Sequence record: SRR31156797_401
Reading direction: 5' to 3' (one strand)
Length of the DNA: 64,000 nt
Part shown: positions 4,996 through 29,319 of the stretch, in pieces
Position numbering within the stretch: position 1 is the stretch's first letter
Layout: each line of letters starts with the position of its first letter
Position numbers and translations under genes: made by a program
Notes under the pieces: model-generated
What the model saw: the letters and a program-made list of their open reading frames with translations, nothing else
Database searches by the model: none
Told to the model about the DNA's origin: nothing

Positions 4996-5004
4996 AACGT
5001 TAGC

Positions 5005-5778
5005 CTATCCCAAAACAGAGGTTTTCGTTTTCATTATCCGGACTAACTTCTCAGCCACAGTTCCCGGTTCCCCTTCAAGAACAACAGCCATACCTCTTCT
5101 CTCTGGGAAATAAAGCCTAGCGGTCTGCTGTCTGGCTTCACAGGTTATCAGGGACGAGACAGGGATGGTGAGAAGTTCCTTCTTCTTGGCTTTCATAATA
5201 TTGGGAAAAGTGGGATAGCGTGGAGTATTCAATCCTAGCTGGCAGGTTACCAGCGCAGGCGTGGTCAAAACCACATTGGCTCTGATGCCGCCTTCAAGTT
5301 CACGCTTAACCTCAATACGATTATTACTGTAAGAAAAATCAACGACCGTTGTAACGCTCGGTATGGAAAGCATCTCACCGACAAATACCCCAACCTGGGC
5401 ACTACCACGATCCTGTGATTGCATGCCGGTAAAGATAAGATCGAAGTCCTTATCCCCGGCATACCCAGCGATGATGCCGGCTATGGTAAAAGGCTCCCTG
5501 ATGCAAGCATCATCATCGGCAACATGGATACCTCTGTCACACCCTATGGCAAGGCCTTTCTTTATGGCCTCCTTGACCCTTTCCGGTCCAACGGATAACA
5601 CAGTGATGTCTGTGTCCTTAACCTGCTCCTTAACGCGTACCGCTTGTTCGACCGCATACTCATCATACTCGTTCATCCGCCAGGCCAGGTCACCGGTATC
5701 ATACCAAAGGCCATTGGCTGCGATCTCGAATTTGGAATTCATATCCGGAACCTGCTTTATGCAGACTAAAATTTTCAT
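5005..5778 (-). CDS. etfB: Electron transfer flavoprotein beta subunit
   Basis: MKILVCIKQVPD, MNEYDEYAVEQA, GMQSQD, RELEGG, NTPRYP. Confidence 0.95.
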   Translation of the reverse strand: MKILVCIKQVPDMNSKFEIAANGLWYDTGDLAWRMNEYDEYAVEQAVRVKEQVKDTDITVLSVGPERVKEAIKKGLAIGCDRGIHVADDDACIREPFTIAGIIAGYAGDKDFDLIFTGMQSQDRGSAQVGVFVGEMLSIPSVTTVVDFSYSNNRIEVKRELEGGIRANVVLTTPALVTCQLGLNTPRYPTFPNIMKAKKKELLTIPVSSLITCEARQQTARLYFPERRGMAVVLEGEPGTVAEKLVRIMKTKTSVLG

Positions 5779-5797
5779 GTTACCCCTAAATATTTTA

Positions 5798-11767: not shown

Positions 11768-12610
11768 ATGAAACTACACCACTTAAGAAATGCTACCTTT
11801 ATAATTGAGTCAGGTCCTCACTTCATCCTTGTCGACCCCATGCTGGGCAACAAAGAATCGTTGCCACCTTTTGCCTTCTTTCGACATAAGGCAACCCGAA
11901 ACCCAACCGTTTCTCTGCCTGAAAATGCCTCTCTCCTCTTTGATAAGGTAACCGCCTGCCTAATTACCCACAGCAGGACATTTGGAATTAAAGCACTCCA
12001 GCATACCGACCACCTTGATGGTGCAGGAGAAAGTTTCCTCAAATCCGCCAGCATCCCGGTTACCTCATCCAAAAAAGATGGTCCTTATTTACAAAAACAG
12101 GGACTATCAGTCGAAAACGGGCTGGTTCCGTGGAGTCCAAGTCCGTACAAAGGCGGCCAGATAACAGCCATACCAGCCCAACATGGGTACGGCTGGGTCC
12201 ATCACTTCATGGCCAATGGCGTGGGGTTCTTTATAGAATTACCAGACGAGCCATCGTTGTATATCAGCGGAGACACAATCTTTACGCCTGAGGTAAAACG
12301 TGTCCTCACTCAACTACAGCCAGATATTACAGTGGTAGCAACAGGCACTGCATGCCTGGACGTTGGCGACTCCCTGCTGATGAAGCCCAAAGAAATCCTA
12401 TCTTTTATACAAACAGCATCTGGAAAGGTTATTGCCAACCACATGGAAGCTCTCAACCATTGTCCGATCACCCGAACCAAACTCAAACAAATGCTCACAG
12501 ACGCAGGTCTTCTTGAAAAGGTCTGGATACCTGAAGACGGAGAGACCCTCACCACCGCAACAAAAGCACAAAAACAGGCCCACGTTCAACAAACGCTCGC
12601 AAAAAGGTGA
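11768..12610 (+). CDS. Metallo-beta-lactamase-fold hydrolase
   Basis: LRNAT, ILVDPML, ITH...HTDH, PAQHG, YISGDT, NHMEALNHC. Confidence 0.88.
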   Translation: MKLHHLRNATFIIESGPHFILVDPMLGNKESLPPFAFFRHKATRNPTVSLPENASLLFDKVTACLITHSRTFGIKALQHTDHLDGAGESFLKSASIPVTSSKKDGPYLQKQGLSVENGLVPWSPSPYKGGQITAIPAQHGYGWVHHFMANGVGFFIELPDEPSLYISGDTIFTPEVKRVLTQLQPDITVVATGTACLDVGDSLLMKPKEILSFIQTASGKVIANHMEALNHCPITRTKLKQMLTDAGLLEKVWIPEDGETLTTATKAQKQAHVQQTLAKR

Positions 12611-12748
12611 CAGTCTGAGAAAAATCACTATCTTTGCCTCGCCAACCCGTACTCCAACAAAAACCACCCACTCCTGAAACCTTTACAAACCAGACAAAAA
12701 AAGCAAGAGCCAGAACCACGCCATGACCAAATGCCACGCGCAACCAGA

Positions 12749-12788
12749 CACCCCCCTTTAAAACACCCCCCTGTCTCCACCACCCCCC
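12749..12788. repeat. Three direct CACCCCCC repeats
   Basis: CACCCCCC at 12749, 12764 and 12781, just upstream of a TTGACA at 12809. Confidence 0.7.
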
Positions 12789-13049
12789 AGTATCAAAAAA
12801 ATTTACACTTGACATAAGCTGGTATTATAGAGTTAATTCTTGGACTCAACCTGACACGGGTCAGAACGCCTCATCTTTTTTTCCAATTCTCCAGTTTCCA
12901 AAAGGGTCGCTCACTGAGCGATAAACCATGCAGGGCTATACAGCGCTTGCAAAGGAAACATATCGAGGCAATCAGGGGAGCAGGTTACGCTTTCCGTTCT
13001 TCTGCATCCAAAAAGTTGCAACATTAATCACCATCACCAGGGAATCAGC

Positions 13050-13331
13050 ATGGCATTCTGGCGAGAGCCTCTCGACGCTCAAGAAATCCAGGTAACAAAA
13101 GGGATTGTCTATATCATTGAAGACAGGTGCAAGGGATGCGGGTACTGCATAGAGTTCTGCCCCAAAGATATTCTTGCCTTTGCCGACAAGTTCAACAATA
13201 AAGGGTATCATCCCCCTTTTGCCGTTAAGCCCGATGACTGTGTGAATTGCCATTATTGCGAAATCATCTGTCCGGAGTTTGCCATTTACTCAGCAGAAGA
13301 TCCTCAGTCATCACCTACGGTAACCCTGTAG
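13050..13331 (+). CDS. korD: 2x[4Fe-4S] ferredoxin-like delta subunit of 2-oxoacid:ferredoxin oxidoreductase
   Basis: CKGCGYCIEFCP and CVNCHYCEIICPEFAI; first gene of the delta-alpha-beta-gamma set. Confidence 0.88.
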   Translation: MAFWREPLDAQEIQVTKGIVYIIEDRCKGCGYCIEFCPKDILAFADKFNNKGYHPPFAVKPDDCVNCHYCEIICPEFAIYSAEDPQSSPTVTL

Positions 13332-13367
13332 ACATTTATCAATATCCAGTAATTCCAGGGACTGATT

Positions 13368-14513
13368 ATGAAACCAGCAGTACTGACAGGCGAACATTAC
13401 ATAACAGGTGACGTTGCCTGCGCCGAAGGAGCTATTGCCGCAGGATGCAAGTTCTTCGGAGCCTATCCCATTACCCCCGCAACCGAAGTTGCCGAACATA
13501 TGGCAGAACGCCTGCCTGATGTTCAAGGCACCTTCATCCAGATGGAGGATGAAATCGCTGCCATTGCCTCCATCCTTGGAGCTGCATGGACAGGAACCAA
13601 AAGTATGACCTCTACTTCGGGGCCAGGATTCAGCCTGATGATGGAAAACCTTGGCCTGGGAGTCTGCACCGAAACACCATGCGTGATAATTAACGTACAG
13701 CGCACCGGACCATCAACCGGACTACCTACTCTTACCGGCCAGGGAGACATGATGCAGGCCAGGTGGGGATCCCATGGTGACTACGAAATTATCGCACTGG
13801 CCCCCGCATCTCCCCAGGACTGTTTTTACCACACCATCCTTGCCTTTAATCTCAGCGAGAAATACCGAGTCCCTGTACTTGTAATGGCAGATGAAATCGT
13901 TGGCCACATGAGTGAAAAGGTTGTTATTCCAGAAGCTTCTGAAATCAAACTGATTGATCGCCCGAAGCCTAGGGGCAGAAAGGATCGATTCAAACTGTAC
14001 GAGCCAGGCCCAAACGGAGTTGCACCTATGCCAGCCATTGGGGACGGGTACAACGTACATGTTACTGGCCTGACCCACGACGAACGCGGCTACCCCGCCA
14101 TGAGTGTCGAAGCCCAGGAACAGATGATGACCAACCTTAAGGGTAAAATTCGCAATAACCTTGACGACATCATCGAAACCGAAGAGTACCGGATGGACGA
14201 TGCTGACATTGTTATTGTCTCTTACGGCATTTCAGTGCGTACTGGACTGACTGCAGTCGACGAGGCAAGAAAGCTTGGCTACAAAGCTGGTCTGCTGAGG
14301 CTGGTGACAGTCTGGCCCTTTCCGGAACAGATGATTAGAGATATAGCCGAGCGCGTGCGAGGCCTTATCACTGTTGAAATCAACCTGGGCCAGGTTCACT
14401 ACGAGGTCGAACGGTGTGCAGGCGGAAAAGCTCCAGCCTACCTTGTCGGCAGTGCAGGCGGAAAAATAATTCACCCGGACAAGGTTATCGAACTGATTAA
14501 GGAGACCTTCTGA
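13368..14513 (+). CDS. korA: 2-oxoacid:ferredoxin oxidoreductase alpha subunit (Kor-type; substrate unproven)
   Basis: YPITPATE, QMEDEIAA, TSGPGFSLMME, VQRTGPSTGLPT, EINLGQ. Confidence 0.92.
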   Translation: MKPAVLTGEHYITGDVACAEGAIAAGCKFFGAYPITPATEVAEHMAERLPDVQGTFIQMEDEIAAIASILGAAWTGTKSMTSTSGPGFSLMMENLGLGVCTETPCVIINVQRTGPSTGLPTLTGQGDMMQARWGSHGDYEIIALAPASPQDCFYHTILAFNLSEKYRVPVLVMADEIVGHMSEKVVIPEASEIKLIDRPKPRGRKDRFKLYEPGPNGVAPMPAIGDGYNVHVTGLTHDERGYPAMSVEAQEQMMTNLKGKIRNNLDDIIETEEYRMDDADIVIVSYGISVRTGLTAVDEARKLGYKAGLLRLVTVWPFPEQMIRDIAERVRGLITVEINLGQVHYEVERCAGGKAPAYLVGSAGGKIIHPDKVIELIKETF

Positions 14514-14516
14514 GCA

Positions 14517-15368
14517 ATGACAAAAAATCCCAAAAAGTATAATAAACAACCAGTCCACCCCCTAGACGATCTTATTCGCACCGACCGAATCCCCCATATA
14601 TGGTGCTCGGGGTGCGGTATTGGCACGGTGTTTTCTTCCTGCTTAAAGGCTATCAAGGCTACAGAGATCCCTTACAACCGGTTCACCATGGTCTCAGGTA
14701 TCGGTTGCTCAGCCAGGGGAGCTGGTTATGTCAATCTCGACTCCTTCCACACCACTCATGGCAGAGCCATTCCCTTTGCCAGCGGGATCAAGATGGCAAA
14801 TCCAGACCTGAAGGTTATTGTCTTCAGCGGAGATGGTGATCTATTTGCCATTGGCGGCAACCATTTTATCCATGCTGCCAGGCGCAACATGGATATCACC
14901 GTTGTCTGCGTGAACAATCTCACCTACGGGATGACCGGTGGTCAGGTAGCAGCCACCACCCCCAACAACGCGAACACAACAACAACCCCGTTCGGCAATC
15001 CGGATTCGCCTTTCAACCTACCGCTGATGGCCTATGCTTCTGGCGCGTCCTACATTGCCAGATGGACAATTCTCCACACCAGGGAACTCACGGACTCCAT
15101 CAACGAAGCCATAAATAAAAAGGGATTTTCATTTATCGAAGCTCTCTCCCCCTGCCCGATCAATTACGGTCGCAGAAACAAGGAAAAGCCCCTTGACACC
15201 CTGAAGCTGTACCAAGAAAAGACCATTATTAAAAATGGCGCTGACCCTGCAAAAGCTGATATCGATTTTGAACGTGGAGTCATCCTGGGCAAATTCGTTG
15301 ATACAGACCGAAACACCTGTGACGACATGTACGCCTCTAAATGTCACCGTCCCTGCTCTGACGATTAA
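14517..15368 (+). CDS. korB: 2-oxoacid:ferredoxin oxidoreductase beta subunit (TPP-binding)
   Basis: WCSGCG, SGIGCS, HGRA, GDGD...NNLTYGMTGGQ, SPCP. Confidence 0.92.
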   Translation: MTKNPKKYNKQPVHPLDDLIRTDRIPHIWCSGCGIGTVFSSCLKAIKATEIPYNRFTMVSGIGCSARGAGYVNLDSFHTTHGRAIPFASGIKMANPDLKVIVFSGDGDLFAIGGNHFIHAARRNMDITVVCVNNLTYGMTGGQVAATTPNNANTTTTPFGNPDSPFNLPLMAYASGASYIARWTILHTRELTDSINEAINKKGFSFIEALSPCPINYGRRNKEKPLDTLKLYQEKTIIKNGADPAKADIDFERGVILGKFVDTDRNTCDDMYASKCHRPCSDD

Positions 15369-15404
15369 ATCTCCTCTCACCAATACGCCTGCTGACAAAG
15401 TACT

Positions 15405-16013
15405 ATGAATGACCAGGAAAAAAACACCATTGCGCAAACAGAAATCATTGTCACCGGATTTGGCGGCCAGGGCATTATCCTTGCCGGAAAAATCCTGGGT
15501 ATGGCTGCTTCCCTTGGCGACCATAAGGAAAGCACACTGGTACAGGCCTACGGCCCAGAATCCAGAGGTGGTGCATGCAACGCACAAGTAATCATTTCCG
15601 AGACCCCCATCCATTATCCCTATGTGCAGTATCCTGATATTCTGATAGCGATGTCCCAGGCCGGTTACGATAAATTTGCCGGCCAGATATCTGAAAACAG
15701 CATTCTGCTGATCGACCAGGATCTGGTACCGACCATTAATGCACCCTGTCCTGCCTACACAATCTCCTCGACAAGGATGGCAGAAAAGCTAGGACATAAA
15801 ATGATGGCGAATATCATCATGGTTGGTTTTACAACGGCAATTACCCAGCTTGTCTCCAGCAATTCTGCCCAGGAGATGATTGCTAAATCAGTCCCTAAAG
15901 GCACGGAAGAAAAAAACATCGCAGCCTTTACCAAAGGCTATGATTACGGCCTCTCTACCCTAAAGGGCCGGGAAAGAAAGGCCGCCGGTCAGGCAGGAGC
16001 CATTGTAGAATGA
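15405..16013 (+). CDS. korC: 2-oxoacid:ferredoxin oxidoreductase gamma subunit
   Basis: GFGGQGIILAG, YGPESRGG, ANIIMVG. Confidence 0.92.
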   Translation: MNDQEKNTIAQTEIIVTGFGGQGIILAGKILGMAASLGDHKESTLVQAYGPESRGGACNAQVIISETPIHYPYVQYPDILIAMSQAGYDKFAGQISENSILLIDQDLVPTINAPCPAYTISSTRMAEKLGHKMMANIIMVGFTTAITQLVSSNSAQEMIAKSVPKGTEEKNIAAFTKGYDYGLSTLKGRERKAAGQAGAIVE

Positions 16014-19000
16014 AACGCGCAAAAGAACGTTTACAAAGAGTTATAGTTATTGGTGCCACCCCGGAAGGCATTGCAGCAACCAATAAGCTTGGAGAACTGG
16101 GCGTACCGGTAACCCTGATCGAGTCTGAGCCGGATATCGACCACAAGCTGACTGCTGACAGGTTCCGGCTCCGCTCCGGCCTTAGCTTTAATTATGCCTA
16201 CCGACCAGGACTGATAAGGATCATGCGCAACAGCGCCATCCGAAGCATCCTGCCTGCCAGAATCAGCTCCATCAAACATACACCTCAAGGGTTCAGTGTC
16301 CGGGCGGTACAGGAACAGACCTTTATTGACCCTGATAAATGTACCCTTTGCGGCAAGTGCGCTGCAACCTGCCCGGTAACCACCTGTGAAGGCCTCAGCC
16401 CCATCACTTTTCACTCTCGAGTAGCGCTCCCCGGTCGCCCCTTTATCGACAAACGACAACAGCCCCTCTGCCAGGCAAATTGCCCGCTGGGAGTCAATGC
16501 CCAGGGATATGTTGCCCTGGCAGCCCAGGGGAGATACCAGGAGGCACTGGACCTGATCCGTGAACAAAACGTGCTGCCTGGAATCTGCGGCCGTATCTGC
16601 ACCCACCCCTGCGAAGATGCCTGCCGAAGGGGTGAGATTGACGAGGCCGTGTCAATACGGGCTATTAAACGATTTGTTGCCGACTACGTAGAAGGTGACA
16701 GCAAAGAGGCCTCTACAGCAGCCCCTATCACTGCTCCCCAGAAAAGAGCTGAGAAGATAGCTATTATCGGCTCCGGGCCTGCAGGCCTCGCAGCGGCGGC
16801 AGAACTTGCCAAGTTCGGTTACGCGGTAACAATATTTGAAAAAGAGACAGCAATCGGCGGCATGCTTCGTTATGGCATAGGTTCACACCGCCTACCGGAA
16901 ACAATTCTCAACCGGGAACTGGAATACATAAAACGTCTTGGCGTAAACATTGTGAACGATAGCAAGGTAGCTCTTGAAGACGACCTTGCATCCTTGCAAG
17001 AACAGTACCAGGCAGTCATCGTCGGTACCGGTACCTGGTATGACCGAAAGCTTGGCGTTCCCGGTGAGGATCTGTCTGGTATTGAAGGGTGTATTTCTTT
17101 TCTGGGAAGTGAGAAGGTGCACAACATTGATAAACTCAATGAAAAAATAGCTGTTATCGGTGACGGTAACTCGGCCTTTGACCTTGCCCGAACCTTAACC
17201 AGATTAGGGGCCGAGGTGACACTTGTATCCTGGTTTGGTAAGGACCAAATACCTGCCGATCCAGATGAAGTCCGGGAGGCAATAGAAGAGGGCATAACGA
17301 TTATTGACCAAACCCAGGTTACCGGGTTCATAGGCGAAAACAATCGGTTTACAGCACTTGAGTGCAGGAAAACAAAACAAGGAAAACCAGATACAAATGG
17401 TATCGCCTGGCCGGTACTTGACGACCAACATGCTCCTTCTGCCCTGGAATTTGATCGGGCCTTTGTGGCCGTAGGCCAGGTTGGTGGTTTTTCTCCGGAC
17501 AATACGACCCTCCCCTTTAAGATCACTGACCATGGTTTTATCGCCACTGATGCGGCTCAAAGAACGTCAACCAACGCACTGTATGCCGCAGGAGATGCCG
17601 TTTCTGGCCCCTCATCGGTTGTACACGCCATGGCCTCTGGCAAGCGGGCTGCGGCTGCAATCCATGAAGATCTTAGTGGCGAGACGGTCCTCTCCCCTCT
17701 AACCCGTCCCGAGCAAAAAGATTTCACCTCTATCCCACCAGACATCGCTTGGCATAAACGTCCGGAGATGGCTGAAAAAGAAGCGGGAGAAAGGGAGAAA
17801 GATTTCACAGAGGTAGCGCTTGGCCTCTCCAAACAGCAAGTAGAGGAAGAAGCACAACGATGCCTCCAATGTGGTGCCTGTTCCGAATGTTTTCAATGCA
17901 TTGAGGCCTGCGGTGCACTCAAAGCCATCGACCACATACAGCATGAACAGGAAATCAAGGAACAGGGAGGCGTTCTTATTGTAGCCGACCCTGCCATGGC
18001 TACCAACATCAAGGGGGAAGATGTTATTAGAGCATACGGCCCCAGGGCTGCCCGTGCCGATGTTAACGACATGACCGTGCGAGGCTTTGCCGCCGCCGGC
18101 AAAGCAATGCTGCTTCTTAGCGACACCGCTAGAAAGAAAACCAAAGGCCACGGTCTTGCCTTTGCCATGCCTGATGCGGGCCTCTCACCCGAATCGAGAA
18201 TCGGTGTTTTCGTCTGTCGCTGCAACGACTCTCTTGGCTGGATGGATGGAATGACCACCCACCTCAAGGAACAAGAGACAATCGACCCTGCAATTGTCCA
18301 CATTGAGGAACTCACCTCTGCCTGCGTCAGCGAAGGAATTGATGCCATAATAAAAGCCACCCGGGAAAAAGACCTGACCAGGATTGTACTCGGGTCTTGT
18401 GTCTGCTGCCCGCTCAACTTTGTGTGCAGCTCATGTACAGATCAGCGCAGCCGCCTCAAAGACAAACTCTTCCATGGCACAGGAATCAGCAGGTCCATGG
18501 TGGAGACTTCCAACCTGCGCGGAGAGATATTACGCCTGGTAAAAAGCAACCCTCAGCTCGCCATGAAAAGGTTCCAGGGGCTGCTCCACCGGTCAATAGA
18601 AAGGGCAAAAATTCTCAAGCCCTTACCTGCTGTTGACCGTAACTATAACTTCACGGCAGCTGTTATCGGTAATTCTGAGGCTACACTTACCAGTGCCGTA
18701 CACCTTGCCAAAACAGGGCATGATGTCTTTCGCTTCGGCACCAGGGAACAACCTCTCACCGAACCAACACCAAATGATAACATTCATAGTTTTACAGGTT
18801 GGGATGTTAAAGCACTCAGCGGTACCATTGGTGACTTTCAAATTTTGATTGAATCCGGCCAGGAGCGCCAAGTGATAAGGGCCGGGACAGTTATCCTCGG
18901 TGATAAAGCACGACGGAGCCTCCCTTATACCCATCAAGAGGGCCTCCCAACCTGCAACATAGAGCCGCTCCTGCAGCAAAAAGGGGTCGCAGGTATTCCC

Positions 19001-19408
19001 TTTGCCTATCCGTGCGCCACTTCCGTTCCGGGACTCTTTCTTGCTGAACCACCCGGTATCAACGTTTCCAAACTTAAAAAAGGCGCTGCAGCAGCGATAA
19101 TGGCAGCATCGGCCCTGCCTAGAGGTCCAAGGCAAAGTAAAGGGTTTACTGTGGTTGTCAATCAGAAACTCTGCCGGGGATGCGGTCGGTGCTCAACCGT
19201 CTGCCCGTACCATGCCGTCACCTTTCATCAAAACCAAACCGGCGGCTGGCAGTCCTCCGTGGACGAAGCTATCTGCAAGGGTTGTGGCAACTGCATTTCT
19301 GTCTGCCCAACCGGAGCTGCCGACAGCCCCTATCGAAACCGAGAATACCTTGAGCAGACCCTCGAAGAAATATTAAGCAACCAGGACATCCATGACCATG
19401 CACAATAA
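16010..19408 (+). CDS. HdrL-like multidomain flavoprotein: degenerate HdrA modules surrounding a GltD/NfnB-like pyridine-nucleotide oxidoreductase, with several Fe-S sites
   Basis: CTLCGKCAATCP; GltD-like CQANCP...CGRICTHPCEDAC, IIGSGPAG, GGMLRYGI, VIGDGNSA, AAGDAVSGP; EAQRCLQCGACSECFQC; HdrA N-terminal-like RIGVFVCRC; C-terminal CRGCGRCSTVCP and CKGCGNCISVCP. Confidence 0.85.
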   Translation: MKRAKERLQRVIVIGATPEGIAATNKLGELGVPVTLIESEPDIDHKLTADRFRLRSGLSFNYAYRPGLIRIMRNSAIRSILPARISSIKHTPQGFSVRAVQEQTFIDPDKCTLCGKCAATCPVTTCEGLSPITFHSRVALPGRPFIDKRQQPLCQANCPLGVNAQGYVALAAQGRYQEALDLIREQNVLPGICGRICTHPCEDACRRGEIDEAVSIRAIKRFVADYVEGDSKEASTAAPITAPQKRAEKIAIIGSGPAGLAAAAELAKFGYAVTIFEKETAIGGMLRYGIGSHRLPETILNRELEYIKRLGVNIVNDSKVALEDDLASLQEQYQAVIVGTGTWYDRKLGVPGEDLSGIEGCISFLGSEKVHNIDKLNEKIAVIGDGNSAFDLARTLTRLGAEVTLVSWFGKDQIPADPDEVREAIEEGITIIDQTQVTGFIGENNRFTALECRKTKQGKPDTNGIAWPVLDDQHAPSALEFDRAFVAVGQVGGFSPDNTTLPFKITDHGFIATDAAQRTSTNALYAAGDAVSGPSSVVHAMASGKRAAAAIHEDLSGETVLSPLTRPEQKDFTSIPPDIAWHKRPEMAEKEAGEREKDFTEVALGLSKQQVEEEAQRCLQCGACSECFQCIEACGALKAIDHIQHEQEIKEQGGVLIVADPAMATNIKGEDVIRAYGPRAARADVNDMTVRGFAAAGKAMLLLSDTARKKTKGHGLAFAMPDAGLSPESRIGVFVCRCNDSLGWMDGMTTHLKEQETIDPAIVHIEELTSACVSEGIDAIIKATREKDLTRIVLGSCVCCPLNFVCSSCTDQRSRLKDKLFHGTGISRSMVETSNLRGEILRLVKSNPQLAMKRFQGLLHRSIERAKILKPLPAVDRNYNFTAAVIGNSEATLTSAVHLAKTGHDVFRFGTREQPLTEPTPNDNIHSFTGWDVKALSGTIGDFQILIESGQERQVIRAGTVILGDKARRSLPYTHQEGLPTCNIEPLLQQKGVAGIPFAYPCATSVPGLFLAEPPGINVSKLKKGAAAAIMAASALPRGPRQSKGFTVVVNQKLCRGCGRCSTVCPYHAVTFHQNQTGGWQSSVDEAICKGCGNCISVCPTGAADSPYRNREYLEQTLEEILSNQDIHDHAQ

Positions 19409-21008
19409 AGAGTCCTCACCTATTAAAATTATTTTATTCCTCTGCAACTGGGGAGCCCATGCTGCCTATCAAACCCTGCAGGATGAACAGCGCCCCATCC
19501 CGGATGAAGTGCATATGGTTCGAATTCCCTGTACAGGAAGAATCGACCGTGCCCTGCTGCTCAAAGCATTTGCCATGGGGGGGGACGGGGTAGCCCTTGT
19601 CGGTTGTGATCCGGGCACCTGTAGATATGGTACAGGAACTGCCACAGCGCAGCGCAACACCAAAGACACAGGGATGATTCTGGACCTTATGGGTCTTGGC
19701 AGCGAAAGGCTGCGTTTTGCATCTTTTCTGCCGGACGAATCAGATAACCTGCTGCTCTTTCTCGAAACCTTCCTCCAGGACCTCCAACAACGGGGTAAAA
19801 CCAGTATCCAACCTGCACCAGGAGCGCACCCGGTCGACAACATCCCAATGAGTGCAGGAGCGGAGCTGCAGAAACTGATTGCCACCCATGACATTTATGC
19901 CTGCCAGGATTGCGGAAAATGTTCTTCTGCCTGTCCTCTCGCCCTGATAGGCAAACCTTTTTCAGCACGCGGCATCGCCACTGCAGCCATTACAGGTAAC
20001 CTCAATGATGCCGGGGTTAAGGAAAATGTATGGTCCTGCCTGACCTGCGGTTTATGCTTTGAGCGGTGTCCTTCTGCTGTCAACTTTCCTGAATTTATTA
20101 AAGAGCTACGCCATCTTTACAAACAAAACGACAAACATGGCGACGAAACCCATGGTGGTTTTCTTCACGCGCTGATGCGTTCCATGGCTTCGCCTGAGCT
20201 GACTCCCAACAGGTGGCAGAACATCCCCAAGGAGCTGCAGGTCGACCAGAAGAGCAACATCCTCTTTTATGGTGGGTGCGCGCCTTATTATGACATTTTT
20301 TTCAACAAACACCTGGATGTACAAACAGAAAAAATCCTGTTTGATGCCATCAGACTGCTCAACTTCTTTGACGTCCACCCACGGTTGCTCAAAGATGAAC
20401 GCTGCTGCGGTCACGATCTGCTCTGGTCTGGCGACAACGAATATTTCCTTGAAATTGCACGCCTCAATGTCGACAAATTAAACAGCCTTGGCATTGACAC
20501 CATGATCACTTCCTGTCCCGAGTGCTACATGACATTTAACACAACCTATCCGGCACACGGATTGGAACTTAATTTCAAGGTTATACACTTGTACGAATTC
20601 CTTGAAAAAGAGATTGACCGCTCTGCGGTCAGCTTCAAGCCATTGGATAAAAACATTACTTTCCAGGATTCCTGTCGCCTCACTCGCCTTGAAGGCAAGC
20701 CCGAGTTGCCCCGTCTGCTGCTGGAGCGGCTCGCTCCTGAGTCTTTTCAAGAGATGCAGGAATCTGGTAAAGCCGCTGTCTGTTGCGGCAATAGTGCATG
20801 GACCGGATGCGATGCATACAGCAAGGCAATGCAGGTAAAGCGCCTGGAGCAGGCCCGGGATACGGGAGCGGATCTCCTGGTTACAGCCTGCCCCAAATGC
20901 CAGATCCATCTCAAATGTGCCATGGAAGATCCATTACGGCTCAACAAGTTATCTATCGACATGCAGGATCTCACCAGCGTGATCGCGCAAAGTATCAGCT
21001 GGAAATAA
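19392..21008 (+). CDS. MvhD-like [2Fe-2S] domain fused to an HdrD-like region (2x[4Fe-4S] + two CCG domains)
   Basis: FLCNW, RIPCTGR, GCDPGTCRY, ERL; CQDCGKCSSACP, CLTCGLCFERCP; ERCCGH...SCPEC; QDSC...VCCGN...ACPKC. Confidence 0.9.
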   Translation: MTMHNKESSPIKIILFLCNWGAHAAYQTLQDEQRPIPDEVHMVRIPCTGRIDRALLLKAFAMGGDGVALVGCDPGTCRYGTGTATAQRNTKDTGMILDLMGLGSERLRFASFLPDESDNLLLFLETFLQDLQQRGKTSIQPAPGAHPVDNIPMSAGAELQKLIATHDIYACQDCGKCSSACPLALIGKPFSARGIATAAITGNLNDAGVKENVWSCLTCGLCFERCPSAVNFPEFIKELRHLYKQNDKHGDETHGGFLHALMRSMASPELTPNRWQNIPKELQVDQKSNILFYGGCAPYYDIFFNKHLDVQTEKILFDAIRLLNFFDVHPRLLKDERCCGHDLLWSGDNEYFLEIARLNVDKLNSLGIDTMITSCPECYMTFNTTYPAHGLELNFKVIHLYEFLEKEIDRSAVSFKPLDKNITFQDSCRLTRLEGKPELPRLLLERLAPESFQEMQESGKAAVCCGNSAWTGCDAYSKAMQVKRLEQARDTGADLLVTACPKCQIHLKCAMEDPLRLNKLSIDMQDLTSVIAQSISWK

Positions 21009-21029
21009 TCATATAAGCGGAGAATTCCC

Positions 21030-23459
21030 ATGACCCCAACCAACCCTCGTCAAAAATCCGCAGGGGACGAAGCTACGCCCCGCATAGGTGTCTATGTATG
21101 CCATTGCGGACTCAATATAGCCCAATCTGTAAACTGCCCACAGGTAGCAGAAACAGCCTCTGCAGCCAACGACGTTGTTCTGTCCAAGGATATTACCTAT
21201 GCCTGCTCTGAGCCAGGCCAGCAGGAAATAAAGCAGGACATTCTTGACAATCAGCTGGATCGGGTTGTTATCGCTTCCTGCTCTCCCCGGCTACATGAGC
21301 CAACCTTTAAGCAGATGGTGCAGGATGCAGGGCTTAATCCCTACATGATGGAAATGGCCAACCTGCGGGAACAGTGCTCTTGGGTGCATATGAACGATGT
21401 CGAGAATGCCACCCGCAAGGCAGAAACCCTGGTGGACATGGCGGTTTCCAGAGTACGTCATCTTGCCCCACTGACAGAAGAAACCATGCCTCTCATCAAA
21501 AAGACCATGGTCATTGGCGGTGGTATTGCCGGAATCCAGGCTGCCCTAGATCTTGCAGACTGTGGCTATGAGGTCACCTTGGTGGAAAAGCAACCTTCCA
21601 TCGGTGGAATGATGGCTCGGCTGGACAAGACCTTTCCAACCATGGACTGCTCGATCTGAATACTCGGTCCTAAGATGACGGATGCCGGTCGGCATCCAAA
21701 AATAAAGCTCCTGACCTTAAGTGAGGTCGTGGATGTGAAAGGCTATGTCGGTAATTTTGATGTTAAAATTATCAAAAAGGCAAAATATGTTGACGAGACC
21801 GCCTGTACGGCCTGCGGCGATTGTGCCACGGTCTGCCCTGTGGTACGTCCAGATGAATTTGACATGGGACTTGCTTCGCGTAAGGCCATCTACAGCCCGT
21901 TTCCCCAAGCTGTCCCATCGTCCTACCTTATCAATATTAATGAGTGCTTGGGACACAATCCGGCGGTTTGCTCAAAATGTATTGATGTATGTGATAAAAA
22001 ATGCATCAATTTCCATATGTCAGATGAGGAAATTACTGAGCATGTTGGCTCTATTATTGTCGCCACCGGATTGGAGCCCTATGACCCCACCGAACTTGAC
22101 GAATACGGGTACACCCGATTTGAAAACGTATTGACCAGCCTTGAGTTCGAGCGCCTGGTCAACGCCGGAGGACCATCAAAAGGCAACCTGGTTCGACCGA
22201 CAGACAGGAAAACACCGAAATCGGTCGGCTTCATTCAGTGCGTCGGTTCAAGGTCGCTCAGGAAAGGGGAGGAATACTGTTCCAACATCTGCTGCATGAA
22301 CACCATCAAGTCCACTTTGGTGCTCAAAGAGCATTACCCGGACATGGAAGTCAAGGTGTTTTATATTGATATCCGTGCCTTTGGTAAAGGATTTGAGGAC
22401 CTGTATACCAGGAGCCGCAGGTTAGGGGTCAAGTTCATACGAGGCCTGCCAGGATCTCTTGAAGAAACAGCAGATAATACCATGCGAGTTGCCGTTGAAA
22501 ACTCAGCCACCGGCAAACTGGAATTCCATGAACTGGATATGCTGGTACTCGCCTTAGGTGTACAACCAGCACCCAGCACCCAACGGCTCCAAGAAATCAT
22601 GGGGCTGCAGCTGACTCCAGACGGATTCTATCTGGAAGCCCATCCGAAGCTGCAGCCGGTGGATGCCGCCACCCGTGGTATTTTCTATGCCGGATGCGCC
22701 GAAGGTCCAAAAGACATAAAGGAAAGTGTTACCCAGGCTTCGGCTGCAGCTGTCAGGGCAATCCGCCTGATGCATAAAGGCGAAATCACCTCTGAACCAA
22801 TCACCTCAGAGATTGTGGTTGAGAAATGCAAAGCCTGCGGAAAATGTGCAGAGGTTTGCCCTTATAATGCAATTTCGGTTGATGTCAAAAACAAGAAGCC
22901 AGCGGTGGTTAATTCAGCGGCGTGTGCCGGTTGCGGTACCTGTGCAGCAGAATGCCACTTTGATGCCATTATCATGAACCATTACACTGACCAGCAGATT
23001 CTCGGTCAGGTGGACGCCATGCTCACCACTGAGCCGGAAACCAAAATACTGGTCTTTGCCTGCAACTGGTGTTCCTATGCTGGGGCAGATTACGCAGGTG
23101 TAGGCAGGTTGCAGTATCCTGCCAATGCGCATTTGGTGAGAGTAATGTGTTCGGGAAGAGTAGATGAGAAATTCATCTGGGAAGGATTTCGCGGCGGGGC
23201 ACCGGTGGTGCTTGTCAGCGGTTGCCACATTGGTGACTGCCACTACATCGATGCCAATCACTGGACCGAAAAGAGGGTAACGAAACTGCACAAAAAAATG
23301 AAACGGCTCGGCATCCGACCGGAAAGGCTGCAACTGGAGTGGATCAGTGCGGCTGAGGGTATCCGCTTTGCAGACAAAATGAAGGAGATGGAAGCATTAA
23401 GAAAGAGTGTCTCTGCCGAGGAGATCGAAGACACCATAGAACTGCTGACAAAACTGTGA
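21030..23459 (+). CDS. hdrA: Selenocysteine-containing HdrA with C-terminal MvhD fusion (809 aa, U210)
   Basis: The track ORFs 21030..21659 and 21675..23459 are in frame. The junction reads LDKTFPTMDCSI-TGA-ILGPKMTD, where HdrA normally has DKTFPTxDCxxC-I-L-x-P-K-M, and a SECIS-like hairpin follows. Intact GGGIAG, QCVGSR, YCSNICC and GPKDI; C-terminal CNWCSY, CSGR and GCHIGDCHY. Confidence 0.93.
21680..21697 (+). promoter_or_regulatory. Bacterial SECIS element for hdrA
   Basis: GGATGCC-GGTC-GGCATCC perfect hairpin; the loop begins 27 nt after TGA 21657-21659. Confidence 0.85.
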
Positions 23460-23605
23460 GCCTGCTGAAAACATTGCTTCAATAAAAAAAAGAGGTATAT
23501 TTCTTTTATTAGCGAAGGCAAGCGAGGCTCATGGCCTCTTTCTTGCTTCTCTCTGTCCACAAGGCAGGGTTGAAAACAGACTCATTTAAACTGACATTAC
23601 AAACA

Positions 23606-23782
23606 ATGATAAAAAAAGAACTACTTGATATACTTGCCTGCCCCAAATGCAAGGGACCGGTAGAGAGTGATGAACAACAAAGCAGCCTCATCTGTCGTAA
23701 CTGTAGACTGGTCTACCCTGTTAAAGATGATATTCCTATCATGCTGATCGACGAGGCCACCTCCCTTGAGGAAACCAACTGA
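23606..23782 (+). CDS. Trm112/YcaR-family small zinc-ribbon protein
   Basis: LLDILACPKCKG...LICRNCRLVYPVKDDIPIMLIDEA; start ATG 23606 (the track start at 23531 is too long). Confidence 0.9.
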   Translation: MIKKELLDILACPKCKGPVESDEQQSSLICRNCRLVYPVKDDIPIMLIDEATSLEETN

Positions 23783-23816
23783 CAGTTGGTTGACAGGTAA
23801 CTACTTTTTAGTAAAC

Positions 23817-23849
23817 AAAAAAGCCCCGGTCATTGACCGGGGCTTTTTT
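23817..23849. terminator. Bidirectional intrinsic terminator
   Basis: AAAAAAGCCCCGGTC-ATT-GACCGGGGCTTTTTT between convergent genes. Confidence 0.9.
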
Positions 23850-23873
23850 GTTTGATCAACCCAACACTTTTTC

Positions 23874-26327
23874 TCAGGGCGTTATCCCCATTTCTTTTTC
23901 TTTCTTGGCAATCTCCAACCTGGTTTTGACCACCGTATCAGAAACCAAGCTAATAGAGTCAATCCCCTCCTCTACCAAAAAAGTGGCAAAGTCAGGAAAG
24001 TCAGAAGGTCCCTGACCACAGATACCTATCTTCTTGCCCCGCCTTTTAGCGGTCTTAATCACCATCTTGATCAAGGTCTTAACTGCCTCATTGCGCTCAT
24101 CATAGATATGTGAAACCAGGTCAGAATCACGGTCCAAGCCAAGGGTCAACTGGGTCAAATCGTTTGACCCTATGGAAAAACCGTCAAATACATCGGCAAA
24201 GGCGTCAGCGGAAATAACATTCGACGGAATTTCGCACATCACATAGACCTCAAGCCCGTTTTCTCCCTGCACAAGCCCGAATTCCCGCATCACTTCAATC
24301 ACTCGCCGTCCCTCTTCTGGGGTTCGACAAAACGGGACCATCAGTTTGATATTGTCAAGCCCCATATCATTCCTTGCCTTGAGCAGAGCTTTACATTCGA
24401 GTTCAAAAGCGACTTTATACCTGGAGTCATAATAGCGGGATGCTCCGCGCCATCCGATCATTGGATTTGATTCCTCAGGCTCATAGAGATAACCGCCGAT
24501 CAAATTGGCATATTCATTGGATTTAAAGTCCGAGAGACGGACAATAACATCTCTTGGGTAGAATCCGGCAGCAATTCTTCCAACTCCCTCTGCCAGCTTG
24601 TCGATAAAATACTGGCGTTTGTCGTCAGATGAGTAGGCACTTGTTTTGTAATTGATATCCTCGATCACATCCCATATTTCATCATCATCCTTGGCCTCTT
24701 CGCATAACTCCTCGTAATTATAAAGCGCCAGCGGATGAATACCAATATGGGAGTTAATAATGAACTCCTCACGAGCCAGCCCCACCCCTTCGTTGGGAAT
24801 CTGTCCCTCGACAAAGGCCTTTTCCGGCAGACCAACGTTCATCATCACCTTGGTCCGGGTAGCTGGAATATTTTCAAGATCCAGAGTCTCTATGCTAAAA
24901 TCAAGCAACCCTTCATAGATGTACCCGGTCTCTCCCTCAGCGCATGAGGCCGTTACCTCCTGACCATCCTTGACCACCTCGGTACCGTCTTCTGTACCGA
25001 TAACACACGGAATCCCAAGCTCTCGTGAAATAATAGCAGCATGGCAGGTTCTCCCACCACGATTGGTGACAATGGCACTGGCTATTTTCATGATCGGCTC
25101 CCAATCCGGATCGGTCATGTCTGTAACCAGAATTTCACCTGCCTGAAAGTCATGCATCTGACTCACATCATGCAGGATTCGCGTCTTCCCCTTACCGATC
25201 TTGGCGCCAACGGCCTGCCCAGTGGTTAAAACCGGCCCCTTCTCTTTAATGAGATAGGTTTCCAAAACTTTTTTACTTGCCTGGGAATGCACGGTCTCTG
25301 GACGGGCCTGTACAATAAAGAGACCCCCTGTACCTACAGTTTCACCATCGCCATCTTTAGCCCATTCAATATCCATAGCGCGGCCATAGTGCTCCTCAAT
25401 AATGCATGCCCAGCGGGAAAGCTGCAGTATTTCGTCATCACTCAACACATAGCTGCCCCTTTCTAGAGCAGTCGTATCCACATTGATGACCGATTCTTCA
25501 GCATCAGGATCCTGGTTGTAGATCATCTTGATCTCTTTAGTGCCAACCCGTTTACCGACTATGGGCCGTTTCCCCTGCTTGAGCGTTGGTTTGAACACAT
25601 AGTATTCATCAGGGTTCACCGCTCCCTGAACCACATTTTCCCCAAGCCCCCACGCTGCAGTCAAAAAGACAGCATCCTTAAAGCCAGACTCTGTATCGAT
25701 CGAAAATAAAACCCCAGAAGAAGCAGAATCGGAACGCACCATTTTCTGGACAACAATGGAAAGATACACATCAAACTGGCTAAACCCTTTGTCATGGCGG
25801 TAGGAAATGGCCCGATTGGTAAAAAGAGAGGCAAAGCAGCGCTTACAGGCATCAATAAGTGCCTCAGGTCCGCGAATATTAAGGTAGGTATCCTGCTGCC
25901 CTGCAAAAGAGGCATCTGGCAGATCCTCGGCAGTTGCCGACGAGCGAACCGCTACATCGACATCTTCCCCATACTGCTCTTCCATCTTTCGATACGCGGC
26001 AATGATGGCCTCACGCAAATCATTGGGAAAAGCGGCATTGCGAATGATCTCCCGCACCTTTGCCCCACGCTCCTGGAGGTTATGCAAATCGTGGGTATCG
26101 AGATCTGCAAGCGTTTCTCTGATAGCACTTTCAAGTCCTGCGTCCTTCAACAGGTGTTGATAGGCATAGGCGGTGATGGCGTACCCATTGGGCACCACCA
26201 CCCCCTGAGCATCCAGATTGCGGTACATTTCTCCAAGGGAGGCGTTTTTTCCGCCAACCATGGGCACATCGTTAATGCCTATTTCATCAAACCAGAGAAT
26301 AAGTTCCTTCTCGTGTCCTTTTTCCAT
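23874..26327 (-). CDS. ppsA: Phosphoenolpyruvate synthase
   Basis: VGGKNASLGEM, AVRSSATAEDLPDASFAGQQ, phospho-His loop GGRTCHAAIISRELG, MCEIPSN, FSIGSNDLTQ, GICGQGPSD. Confidence 0.97.
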   Translation of the reverse strand: MEKGHEKELILWFDEIGINDVPMVGGKNASLGEMYRNLDAQGVVVPNGYAITAYAYQHLLKDAGLESAIRETLADLDTHDLHNLQERGAKVREIIRNAAFPNDLREAIIAAYRKMEEQYGEDVDVAVRSSATAEDLPDASFAGQQDTYLNIRGPEALIDACKRCFASLFTNRAISYRHDKGFSQFDVYLSIVVQKMVRSDSASSGVLFSIDTESGFKDAVFLTAAWGLGENVVQGAVNPDEYYVFKPTLKQGKRPIVGKRVGTKEIKMIYNQDPDAEESVINVDTTALERGSYVLSDDEILQLSRWACIIEEHYGRAMDIEWAKDGDGETVGTGGLFIVQARPETVHSQASKKVLETYLIKEKGPVLTTGQAVGAKIGKGKTRILHDVSQMHDFQAGEILVTDMTDPDWEPIMKIASAIVTNRGGRTCHAAIISRELGIPCVIGTEDGTEVVKDGQEVTASCAEGETGYIYEGLLDFSIETLDLENIPATRTKVMMNVGLPEKAFVEGQIPNEGVGLAREEFIINSHIGIHPLALYNYEELCEEAKDDDEIWDVIEDINYKTSAYSSDDKRQYFIDKLAEGVGRIAAGFYPRDVIVRLSDFKSNEYANLIGGYLYEPEESNPMIGWRGASRYYDSRYKVAFELECKALLKARNDMGLDNIKLMVPFCRTPEEGRRVIEVMREFGLVQGENGLEVYVMCEIPSNVISADAFADVFDGFSIGSNDLTQLTLGLDRDSDLVSHIYDERNEAVKTLIKMVIKTAKRRGKKIGICGQGPSDFPDFATFLVEEGIDSISLVSDTVVKTRLEIAKKEKEMGITP

Positions 26328-28482: not shown

Positions 28483-29319
28483 ATGTGGGAATATACGGAT
28501 AAGGTTCAAGAACACTTCATTAACCCTAAAAATGTGGGAGAGGTTAAAGGTGCTGACGGCATCGGCAATGTCGGCTCTCTGGCATGTGGGGATGCGCTCA
28601 AGTTAACGATTAAAATAGATGAAAACAATATAATCACCGACGCAAAGTTCAAGACTTTTGGCTGTGCGTCTGCCATTGCCAGTTCTTCAGTATTAACCGA
28701 AATGCTGAAAGGTATGCCGCTGGAAGAAGCCAAGCATATCACCAATGACGATATTGCTCAGGCGCTTGGCGGCCTGCCAAAAGAAAAAATGCACTGTTCA
28801 GTCATGGGCCGAGAGGCACTGGAGGCAGCCATTGCAGACTACACTGGTGCTATTCTCCCCATGGCACAAGGTGAGGTAGTCTGTGATTGTTTCGGCATCA
28901 CAGACCTGGAAGTCATTCGTGCTGTTAAAGAAAACAATCTGCGCTCAGTGGAAGAAATCACCAACTTTACCAAAGCAGGGGGCGGCTGCGGTAAGTGTGA
29001 AGACACCCTCCGTTCTCTTTTAGTAAAGACAGTGGAAGACCTGCCAACCTCCAAGGAGGAACCGGCAAAACAGAAACGAATGACCACCCTCCAGAAAATT
29101 AAGAAGATTGAAGAGGTGCTGGAAAGGGAAATAAAGCCGACCCTGAAAAAGGATGGCGGCAGCATAGAACTTATAGATGTTGATGGTGATTTTGTCACAG
29201 TTTCTCTACGCGGAGCGTGTTCAGGTTGTCATTCATCTCAGACGACGCTCAAGGAATATGTTGAGAAAAAACTGCGTGAGCAGGTTCTCGACACGCTTAT
29301 AGTAGAGGAGGAAAAATAA
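28483..29319 (+). CDS. nifU: Fe-S cluster scaffold NifU (IscU + BFD-like + Nfu domains)
   Basis: ACGD, FGCASA, PKEKMHCS; VCDCFG...GGGCGKC; DGGSIEL...GACSGC. Confidence 0.95.
   Translation: MWEYTDKVQEHFINPKNVGEVKGADGIGNVGSLACGDALKLTIKIDENNIITDAKFKTFGCASAIASSSVLTEMLKGMPLEEAKHITNDDIAQALGGLPKEKMHCSVMGREALEAAIADYTGAILPMAQGEVVCDCFGITDLEVIRAVKENNLRSVEEITNFTKAGGGCGKCEDTLRSLLVKTVEDLPTSKEEPAKQKRMTTLQKIKKIEEVLEREIKPTLKKDGGSIELIDVDGDFVTVSLRGACSGCHSSQTTLKEYVEKKLREQVLDTLIVEEEK

Follow-up and report, generated by a model that had tools for sequence, protein, structure and literature searches.

Gene clusters that place an Hdr-like module beside a 2-oxoacid:ferredoxin oxidoreductase have been noticed in print before. 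The closest is the HdrAL/POR cluster of Syntrophobacter fumaroxidans (Sfum_0012-0018), which Sedano-Nunez et al. 2018 named in one sentence (PMC5947623). We analyzed a cluster of this kind in a 64,000 nucleotide stretch of DNA, SRR31156797_401 (the window), where seven genes at positions 13050–23459 encode the four subunits of a 2-oxoacid:ferredoxin oxidoreductase (Kor), a short HdrL-like protein, an MvhD-HdrD fusion and an HdrA-MvhD fusion with a selenocysteine (Sec) codon. The S. fumaroxidans cluster also has seven genes, with an Hdr-like module containing HdrA and HdrL beside the oxidoreductase, and we take it to be orthologous from two Syntrophobacteraceae loci (L078 and L084) that have the same seven-gene order as the window. 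A preliminary description of the window had presented the operon as a candidate for an undescribed system, a claim that must be withdrawn: the cluster already has a name, and a bifurcation complex of Kor with Flx-Hdr has been proposed (PMC6315080, PMC11636981).

That proposal concerns the korABCD-tfrAB-flxABCD-hdrABC cluster of the reductive tricarboxylic acid (rTCA) cycle, found in tubeworm symbionts (Ca. Endoriftia and the Escarpia symbiont) and in Thioflavicoccus mobilis (Rubin-Blum 2019, PMC6315080; Mitchell 2024, PMC11636981; summary in PMC13147460). Co-expression of the cluster was reported, and bifurcated electrons were proposed to pass from NADH straight to the 2-oxoglutarate:ferredoxin oxidoreductase (OGOR) (PMC6315080, PMC11636981). 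Compared by description, the symbiont cluster and the window share a four-subunit OGOR whose genes are interspersed with those for HdrA, a CCG protein and an NAD(P)H-oxidizing module. The entry point for NADH differs, being an NfnB/GltD-like HdrL in the window and FlxABCD in the symbionts. In addition, HdrB and HdrC are fused in the window into an HdrD that is joined to MvhD, and HdrA carries Sec and an MvhD domain of its own. No domain of FlxABCD, tfrAB (thiol:fumarate reductase), aclAB (ATP-citrate lyase) or pntAB was found in 13050–23459 or in the scanned flanks. The hosts also differ, a Desulfobacterota anaerobe for the window versus an autotrophic gammaproteobacterium for the symbiont cluster.

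The Hdr part of the operon has further relatives in methanogens. It resembles MvhAGD-HdrABC (5ODC) in its HdrA (761 bits), in having Sec210 at the position of Cys197 and in its MvhD and HdrC-like parts, and it resembles HdrA2B2C2 of Methanosarcina (NF040770) in that its HdrA scores above the family cut-off and its CCG motifs are complete. In contrast to these methanogen systems, the window has no hydrogenase and no coenzyme F420 or coenzyme M/coenzyme B pathway, its donor module is HdrL, and its low-potential partner is a Kor encoded in the operon rather than free ferredoxin. A precedent comes from the Hdr-Fdh/Vhu-Fwd super-assemblies, also of methanogens, in which an HdrA module passes low-potential electrons directly to a CO2-fixing enzyme via a ferredoxin-like subunit, without free ferredoxin. 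The CO2-fixing enzyme of those assemblies (PDB 7BKB series; PMC13518236) is a formylmethanofuran dehydrogenase and not a 2-oxoacid:ferredoxin oxidoreductase, and the likeness to the window is functional only. The literature searched, which stopped short of the supplements of PMC6315080 and PMC5947623, yielded no biochemical study of a Kor-Hdr enzyme.

Our analyses indicated that the operon is real, deeply conserved and of a kind already noticed in print. We assign a probability of about 0.5 to the reading that KorDABC and HdrL, MvhD-HdrD and Sec-HdrA-MvhD form one functional unit, in which a soluble Hdr module would serve the synthesis of 2-oxoglutarate by flavin-based bifurcation. In this reading the complex as a physical entity, the route of the electrons, the choice of nucleotide and disulfide, the physiological direction and the substrate are all inferred. 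What is new is the extent and specificity of the linkage, its restriction to a single Kor subfamily, the anatomy of the short HdrL, the universal Sec codon and selenocysteine insertion sequence (SECIS) in the Desulfobacterota clade, and an N-terminal motif in KorD.

The listing of open reading frames (ORFs) and the domain scans bore out the gene content, order, gaps and overlaps given in the preliminary description, with seven plus-strand ORFs within 13050–23459. The four Kor genes come first: korD (delta subunit, 93 residues, 13050..13331, Pfam Fer4 families), korA (alpha, 381 residues, 13368..14513, POR_N and PFOR_II), korB (beta, 283 residues, 14517..15368, TPP_enzyme_C) and korC (gamma, 202 residues, 15405..16013, POR). 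They are followed by the genes for the HdrL-like protein (1132 residues, 16010..19408), the MvhD-HdrD fusion (538 residues, 19392..21008) and the Sec-HdrA-MvhD fusion (809 residues, 21030..23459). The intergenic gaps are 36, 3, 36 and 21 nt, and the two overlaps are 4 nt (korC/hdrL) and 17 nt (hdrL/mvhD-hdrD). As had been said before, no hydrogenase or formate dehydrogenase domain was found in the cluster or in the scanned flanking genes.

To survey the linkage, an alignment of 17 HdrL orthologues was used to find 558 relatives in one-genome-per-species contigs, and the best 80 of these 558 loci were taken. Named sources in this set were Desulfogranum marinum DSM 2058, D. mediterraneum, D. japonicum, Desulfobulbus alkaliphilus, D. 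rhabdoformis and Desulforhabdus sp. TSK, and its metagenome-assembled genomes (MAGs) were labelled Desulfobacteraceae, Syntrophobacteraceae and Desulfatiglandales. The closest named strain was D. marinum DSM 2058, with identities to the window of 89% for HdrL and 98% for KorA; judged by its sequence, the window copy is from a Desulfogranum-like bacterium. At strict thresholds, each of the 53 loci with 3.3 kb or more of upstream sequence had all four kor genes, and 52 of the 53 with 4.6 kb or more downstream had mvhD-hdrD plus hdrA, the exception (L035) being without the C-terminal part of hdrA. The synteny survey called for by the preliminary description thus found the kor-hdr linkage to be conserved, with all seven genes in 45 of the 46 loci that had room on both sides.

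The linkage also extended well beyond these close relatives. An even sample of 401 genomes was drawn from the phylum of the closest MAG, with two candidates scored per genome, which makes the resulting counts lower bounds. At least 24 genomes had a close HdrL (≥51% identity) and at least 21 had a full-length HdrL of 33–38% identity, and 20 loci of each class (40 of the 45 matches) were fetched. KorDABC was encoded upstream in 35 of 35 loci with room. The downstream genes passed at >40% identity in 33 of 37 loci; mvhD-hdrD was present at 38–39% in three of the four misses, and in L099 hdrA was truly absent within 6.4 kb. The linkage is present in both of the divergent HdrL clades, which are 33–36% identical to each other. 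In the sample of a second phylum, that of a MAG titled Dehalococcoidales, KorA of the linked type occurred in 5 of 201 genomes. Three of these five loci had the full seven-gene order, with an HdrL of 28–30% identity, one had kor with hdrA-like and hdrD-like genes, and one had no hdr genes. The arrangement was met in well over 100 loci, far too many for a chance occurrence.

The association is with one form of HdrL and one form of Kor. A scan with an alignment of the second HdrL clade returned 80 loci, 8 with a full-length short HdrL and 72 with the long, "classic" HdrL of ~1460 residues; kor was upstream in 8 of the 8 short-form loci and within 6 kb in none of the 72 long-form loci. Likewise, none of 20 loci of stand-alone Kor paralogues (plain korDABC) had hdr genes within ~6 kb. 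Outside the cluster, a given gene family recurred in at most 9 of 72 flanks on the upstream side and at most 6 of 78 on the downstream side, and for this reason we consider the seven genes to be the whole conserved unit. No DsrC, thioredoxin or ferredoxin gene was found to travel with the cluster. Within the unit, the korC stop and hdrL start overlap by 4 nt (ATGA-type) in 59 of 119 related loci.

The Kor genes together encode all the subunits of a four-subunit Kor/Oor-type enzyme. The cofactor motifs expected of such enzymes are all intact in KorA, KorB and KorD: YPITP at residue 33 of KorA, a GDG...NN thiamine pyrophosphate (TPP) motif at residue 105 of KorB together with Cys30/33/64, and two CxxCxxCxxxCP motifs in KorD (Cys 27/30/33/37 and 64/67/70/74). 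KorB is thus predicted to bind TPP and a [4Fe-4S] cluster. KorA scored 559.8 bits to NF006412, for which the cut-off is 411. The other subunits fell below the cut-offs of 2-oxoglutarate-specific equivalogs: the best NCBIfam match of KorB was the 2-oxoglutarate ferredoxin oxidoreductase beta subunit, KorC scored 197 bits to NF006323 (cut-off 235), and KorD matched OGOR_delta and OorD best. The nearest solved chain to KorA was 1yd7_A (401 bits). Based on the family scores, the nearest solved enzymes and the sucCD and frd neighbors of related loci described below, the sequence evidence points to 2-oxoglutarate/succinyl-CoA as the probable substrate.

The wider Kor subfamily was examined through a KorA search of the same 401 genomes, in which matches of 57–64% identity were found in genomes without a detected short HdrL, and 20 of these loci were fetched. 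Four were a more divergent HdrL cluster, eight were korDABC-hdrA(MvhD) (L214, L215, L218–L221, L224 and L228), three were hdrA-korD-korA-korBC, three had no visible hdr gene and two were incomplete. In seven of the eight korDABC-hdrA loci, an HdrC-like gene of 150 residues and then an HdrB-like gene of 300 residues with two CCG domains follow, and the eighth ends at the contig end; these korDABC-hdrA-hdrC-hdrB clusters are without an NAD(P)H module. Genes for an Fe-S protein and a fumarate-reductase-type flavoprotein (frdBA-like) follow kor in four loci (L213, L222, L227 and L216), the last of which is among the loci without hdr, the other three being hdrA-first. Genes for succinyl-CoA synthetase (sucCD) come after them in L213, L222 and L216. 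In a quick maximum-likelihood tree of 93 KorA rows, the 73 rows of the subfamily formed one clade (Shimodaira-Hasegawa-like approximate likelihood ratio support of 100), apart from the 20 paralogues. One Kor subfamily thus keeps HdrA as its partner throughout, and the variable part is HdrL plus MvhD-HdrD or HdrC plus HdrB.

The hdrA-first loci have a layout of their own, comprising hdrA (665 residues, no MvhD), korD, korA, a fused korBC, the Fe-S protein, an FAD_binding_2 flavoprotein and, in L213 and L222, sucC and sucD. L216 shares this layout except for hdrA, and L227 shares it without sucCD. This sister arrangement looks like a reductive C4-to-C5 branch of the TCA cycle tied to HdrA. After it, L213 also has genes for two NfnB/GltD-like proteins and a Sir2-family gene. 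In L215, korDABC-hdrA-hdrC-hdrB is followed by genes for an Mrp/NUBPL-type Fe-S carrier ATPase and a radical-SAM protein.

The linked KorD proteins share an N-terminus of the form M-x-[FY]-W-R-x-P-[LF]-D, at residues 1–9 in the window (FWRxPLD at 3–9). Scored as W[RK]xP[LIVMF][DE] before the first cluster motif, with 12 loci having no KorD in reach, it was present in 113 of 114 HdrL- or HdrABC-linked loci; the exception, L125, reads WREPYD. It was present in none of the 20 stand-alone paralogues, in none of the three hdrA-kor-frd loci, which read RKPLNL or RKPFNL, and in one of four subfamily loci without a visible hdr gene (kept in L216, not in L211, L212 and L250). These rows are phylogenetically related and partly duplicated, and the counts are a lead, not a statistic. 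As such a lead, the motif behaves as a docking peptide would, apparently having been lost with the linkage in about three lineages, and it offers a concrete handle for mutagenesis.

HdrL as known from Desulfobacterium autotrophicum HRM2 (Strittmatter 2009, PMC2702500) is a glutamate-synthase-like NAD(P)H module fused to an HdrA-like sequence and followed by MvhD, in a system with selenoproteins. In the consulted parts of that account of HdrL, kor is not mentioned (PMC2702500). The protein encoded at 16010..19408, which was assigned from Pfam, NCBIfam, BLASTP against HdrA and PDB matches, has the GltD-like NAD(P)H module and the HdrA-like sequence, and the MvhD that follows is the N-terminal domain of the next gene, mvhD-hdrD. 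It is without the complete HdrA flavin domain of the long form; compared with the HdrL defined in D. autotrophicum, it is a short form of ~1130 residues in which this domain is truncated. In BLASTP against the window HdrA, residues 8–124 aligned to HdrA 156–272; this part has the start of a Rossmann fold, with GATPEG as its degenerate motif, and a single Fe-S motif. Residues 723–906 and 997–1099 aligned to HdrA 11–182 and 539–642, with only ~90 residues between them, and a C-terminal ferredoxin domain and an HdrA-like N-domain occupy about residues 720–1110. As the HdrA-like flavin domain is truncated, with no GxGxxG and a degenerate dinucleotide motif (IGxSEAT), the sole clear flavin site predicted in HdrL is an NfnB-like one.

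That site lies in residues 151–630, a complete NfnB/GltD-like module predicted to bind flavin adenine dinucleotide (FAD) and NAD(P)H; in the overall domain layout the module occupies about residues 150–650. This region resembles NfnAB, NfnABC and StnABC (9bov_A 298, 8oh5_C 286, 9n5u_A 274 and 5jca_L 257 bits) over the whole FAD/NADPH module, including two [4Fe-4S] sites. In Nfn, the NfnB-type flavin is the bifurcating one. Unlike Nfn and Stn, HdrL has no NfnA-like partner, and its module is set in HdrA-like scaffolding. The motifs GSGPAG and GDGNSA are invariant in the 17 orthologues. Where all four of the aligned solved homologues have a YRR stretch after the second glycine motif, window-type HdrL has an invariant SWF and the second HdrL clade has AIETE. 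The YRR arginines hold the 2'-phosphate of NADPH, and since they are replaced in HdrL, NADH is the likelier nucleotide over NADPH. A separate feature of the HdrA-like N-domain is an invariant Cys-rich stretch at residues 797–809, SCVCCPLNFVCSxC (CVCCPL[ND]F...C..C), which has no counterpart in HdrA and suggests that HdrL may have one more metal site.

The MvhD-HdrD fusion (19392..21008) comprises by Pfam an FlpD (MvhD) domain at residues 13–133, an HdrC-like Fer4 domain at 170–230 and two CCG domains, and its PDB matches were MvhD and HdrC chains. Both CCG motifs are complete (C296/338/339/375/378 and C428/464/465/500/503), and the protein also has two ferredoxin motifs and four Cys in the MvhD part. 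The CCG motif of noncubane [4Fe-4S] clusters is CX31-39CCX34-36CXXC; the first spacer here, of 41 residues, is slightly above the 31–39 range.

The last gene (21030..23459) joins two ORFs, 21030–21659 and 21675–23459, into one 809-residue frame through a single TGA at 21657..21659 (DCSIUILGPK), in agreement with the earlier claim of a Sec-HdrA. Its product scored 1190 bits to NF040770 (HdrA2; cut-off 1100) and matched 5odc_A, the HdrA of Methanothermococcus, at 761 bits over residues 16–665 and 5odc_D over residues 668–787. Translated with TGA as U, residue U210 aligned to Cys197 of 5ODC chain A, and the FAD motif GGGIAG is present. A candidate bacterial SECIS hairpin at 21680..21697 on the plus strand was recognized from its fold and its conservation across loci. 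It starts 23 nt after the TGA and has a 7-bp stem and a GGUC loop (-22.1 kcal/mol, z -2.4). Among the 80 HdrL loci, 69 had an hdrA N-terminal match of >50% identity, six of which did not reach the codon; TGA was present in all 63 readable loci, and the hairpin was kept, one pair being changed on both sides (C-G to U-A). The gene thus has the features of a bacterial selenoprotein gene, an in-frame TGA at the Cys position of its homologues and a conserved hairpin. Sec is not universal: the second-phylum loci L249, L252 and L253 have TGT or TGC, one second-phylum locus has TGA, and hdrA of L215 is an uninterrupted ORF of 817 residues. The predicted role of HdrA is flavin-based electron bifurcation.

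If the operon encodes one bifurcating unit, NAD(P)H, more likely NADH, would be oxidized at the NfnB/GltD-like flavin of HdrL, and the electrons would pass over Fe-S clusters and the [2Fe-2S] centers of MvhD to the Sec-flanked flavin of HdrA. From there the high-potential electron could travel through the HdrC-like clusters and the two noncubane CCG clusters to a disulfide, of DsrC or another thiol carrier, while the low-potential electron could pass via a ferredoxin domain to KorD and on to the TPP site, for the conversion of succinyl-CoA and CO2 to 2-oxoglutarate. The overall reaction would be reversible. The 2-oxoglutarate/succinyl-CoA plus CO2 couple lies at ~-500 mV, NAD(P)H at -320 mV and a heterodisulfide at ~-140 mV, and because these potentials average correctly, bifurcation is energetically consistent. 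The preliminary description had envisaged a soluble complex coupling three substrates, a 2-oxoacid, NAD(P)H and a disulfide such as that of DsrC. The domains fit the idea of three substrates: the TPP and Fe-S motifs are intact, HdrL carries FAD and GxGxxA motifs, and both CCG motifs are complete. The complex is putative, and DsrC is a candidate disulfide.

We also entertain, much more tentatively, a stronger form of this scheme, in which the operon encodes a ferredoxin-free supercomplex and the N-terminal WRxPLD peptide of KorD docks it on the Hdr module. Two potentially bifurcating flavins, the NfnB-like one in HdrL and the Sec-flanked one in HdrA, would act in series or in parallel, and NADH alone would drive CO2 fixation into 2-oxoglutarate while a thiol carrier is reduced. 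If this speculation is correct, the supercomplex would be an Nfn/Hdr hybrid that turns a ferredoxin-dependent carboxylation into an NADH-dependent one.

Several observations weigh against a single unit for 2-oxoglutarate synthesis. Many loci were picked through HdrL or from related genomes, and some contigs were fetched twice (for example as L011 and L109), so the linkage counts are not independent events. No korC-hdrL fusion occurs in 119 related loci; thus, no gene fusion joins Kor to Hdr, and Rosetta-stone support by this route was rejected. The replacement of both YRR arginines by SWF leaves the nucleotide uncertain and its binding putative, and the quality of the AlphaFold model predicted for HdrL was too low for further analysis (mean predicted local distance difference test 58.6, predicted template modelling score 0.38). 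Of the 401 genomes in the sample, 200 have a dsrA above the cut-off; among the 45 genomes with the cluster the figure is 37, and no dsrA was found in the other 8, by a listing read by eye and with genome completeness unknown. Given this distribution, DsrC is a plausible but not an obligatory disulfide. All five isolates with the cluster have a second KorA paralogue (46–49% identity), and four of the five have an NADP-isocitrate dehydrogenase above the cut-off. For this reason a 2-oxoglutarate synthase is not obviously needed, and the operon is not the sole possible source of 2-oxoglutarate. Finally, the orthologous S. fumaroxidans cluster was undetected in any proteome of PMC5947623, sulfate-reducing growth included.

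In an alternative reading, the same complex would work in the oxidative direction, passing electrons from 2-oxoglutarate without free ferredoxin to a disulfide (DsrC) and/or NAD(P)+ and so feeding sulfite reduction, either by confurcation with a dithiol or as a ferredoxin-independent 2-oxoglutarate:DsrC/NAD(P)+ oxidoreductase. The HdrA2 enzyme of Methanosarcina uses reduced ferredoxin for heterodisulfide reduction, and HdrA-MvhD of the window is above the cut-off of that family. The higher share of dsrA in cluster-bearing genomes than in the whole sample, and an oxidative supply of 2-oxoglutarate through isocitrate dehydrogenase in four of five isolates, also agree with an oxidative role, and in the HdrL-less korDABC-hdrA-hdrC-hdrB clusters, which have no NAD(P)H entry, a two-substrate transfer from 2-oxoglutarate to a disulfide is the simplest reading. 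Electrons at ~-500 mV, however, would reach NAD(P)+ or a disulfide without needing a bifurcating flavin, and the sister loci adjoin frdBA-like and sucCD genes, as do reductive-branch clusters. The eight genomes in which dsrA was not found, and the silence of the S. fumaroxidans proteomes (PMC5947623) under sulfate-reducing growth, argue in the same sense, and we regard the oxidative direction as unlikely. Also improbable, in our view, is that there is no supercomplex, and that Kor and HdrL/HdrD/HdrA are separate soluble enzymes that are only co-regulated and share free ferredoxin, the Hdr part acting as a bifurcating NAD(P)H:ferredoxin/disulfide enzyme to supply Kor with reduced ferredoxin. 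The absence of fusions fits this reading, Kor has all four normal subunits and their motifs, and the gene order varies, with hdrA before or after kor, which co-regulation would tolerate more readily than a fixed assembly line. Set against this are the KorD motif, which is confined to Hdr-linked loci apart from L216 and lost with the linkage, the frequent korC/hdrL overlap (59 of 119), and the retention of a second, unlinked Kor, which suggests that the linked Kor is specialized for its partner.

The substrate could in principle be another 2-oxoacid (pyruvate, branched-chain or aromatic), as the label HdrAL/POR for the S. fumaroxidans cluster might imply (PMC5947623) and as the sub-threshold scores of the beta, gamma and delta subunits would permit. 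We consider this highly improbable, since KorA scored 384 bits to the NCBIfam model of the 2-oxoglutarate synthase alpha subunit versus at most 112 bits to the PorA, VorA and IOR models. Among solved structures, 8ys5_A, a 2-oxoglutarate synthase (272 bits), and 6n2n_A (217 bits) were far ahead of pyruvate:ferredoxin oxidoreductase (PFOR) and oxalate oxidoreductase (<60 bits), and the sucCD and frdBA-like neighbors of other subfamily members argue for the same substrate.

2-Oxoglutarate synthase requires electrons of ~-500 mV, and how sulfate reducers and syntrophs, as anaerobes near the thermodynamic limit, supply or dispose of such electrons is a question still to be answered. If our reading of one bifurcating unit is correct, a Kor hard-wired to a bifurcating Hdr would connect central carbon metabolism with thiol/disulfide redox, possibly that of DsrC, by a route linked to NAD(P)H and independent of ferredoxin; a proposal along these lines exists for the rTCA cycle of the tubeworm symbionts. 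The idea is directly testable because the cluster occurs in cultured strains (D. marinum, D. mediterraneum, D. japonicum, Desulfobulbus rhabdoformis and Desulforhabdus sp. TSK).

The boundaries of the operon were examined in the surrounding sequence. Upstream of korD is an intergenic region of 439 nt, and beyond it are genes for HrpB, a radical-SAM protein and a protein without a family. A sigma-70 promoter scan was uninformative (11 sites versus 11.0 expected). Downstream, a terminator-like hairpin with a T-rich tail lies 65 nt past the hdrA stop (23524..23538, plus strand), and is weak evidence of an end, as the consensus scan that found it returned 16 sites versus 13.6 expected in shuffles. 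A strong bidirectional intrinsic terminator (A6, a 9-bp GC stem and T6) is at 23817..23849, between the operon and a convergent gene for a phosphoenolpyruvate (PEP)-synthase-like protein; its fold energy was -48.3 kcal/mol (z -6.0), with none of 200 shuffles as good. An Rfam scan of 12400–24000 gave nothing above the gathering score. The sub-threshold Rfam matches at 23817–23849, on both strands and to unrelated leader and miRNA families, reflect the hairpin only.

Between hdrA and the strong terminator is a small plus-strand ORF (23531–23782), the C-terminal 58 residues of which hold CPxC...CxxC, presumably as in the Trm112/YcaR-type zinc-ribbon family. It may be co-transcribed with the operon. 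As only L001, L010 and L011 of the 80 loci have it after hdrA, the ORF falls outside the conserved unit. The downstream flank continues from the PEP-synthase-like gene with phosphoglucomutase, NifU and NifS genes. The last two, ~5 kb downstream of the operon at 28483–30500 on the plus strand, are a nifU-like gene (NifU_N, BFD and NifU) and a class-V aminotransferase gene (nifS-like), and their position is not conserved past close relatives. On the minus strand at 4078–7798, etfA- and etfB-like genes adjoin a gene for a 666-residue protein that combines a ferredoxin part with two CCG domains and whose best NCBIfam match was TfrB, below the cut-off. A gene for a GntR regulator and glpK lie close by. 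The window thereby holds a second Hdr-like module, reminiscent of the hdrF-etfBA and glpAB loci of D. autotrophicum (PMC2702500).

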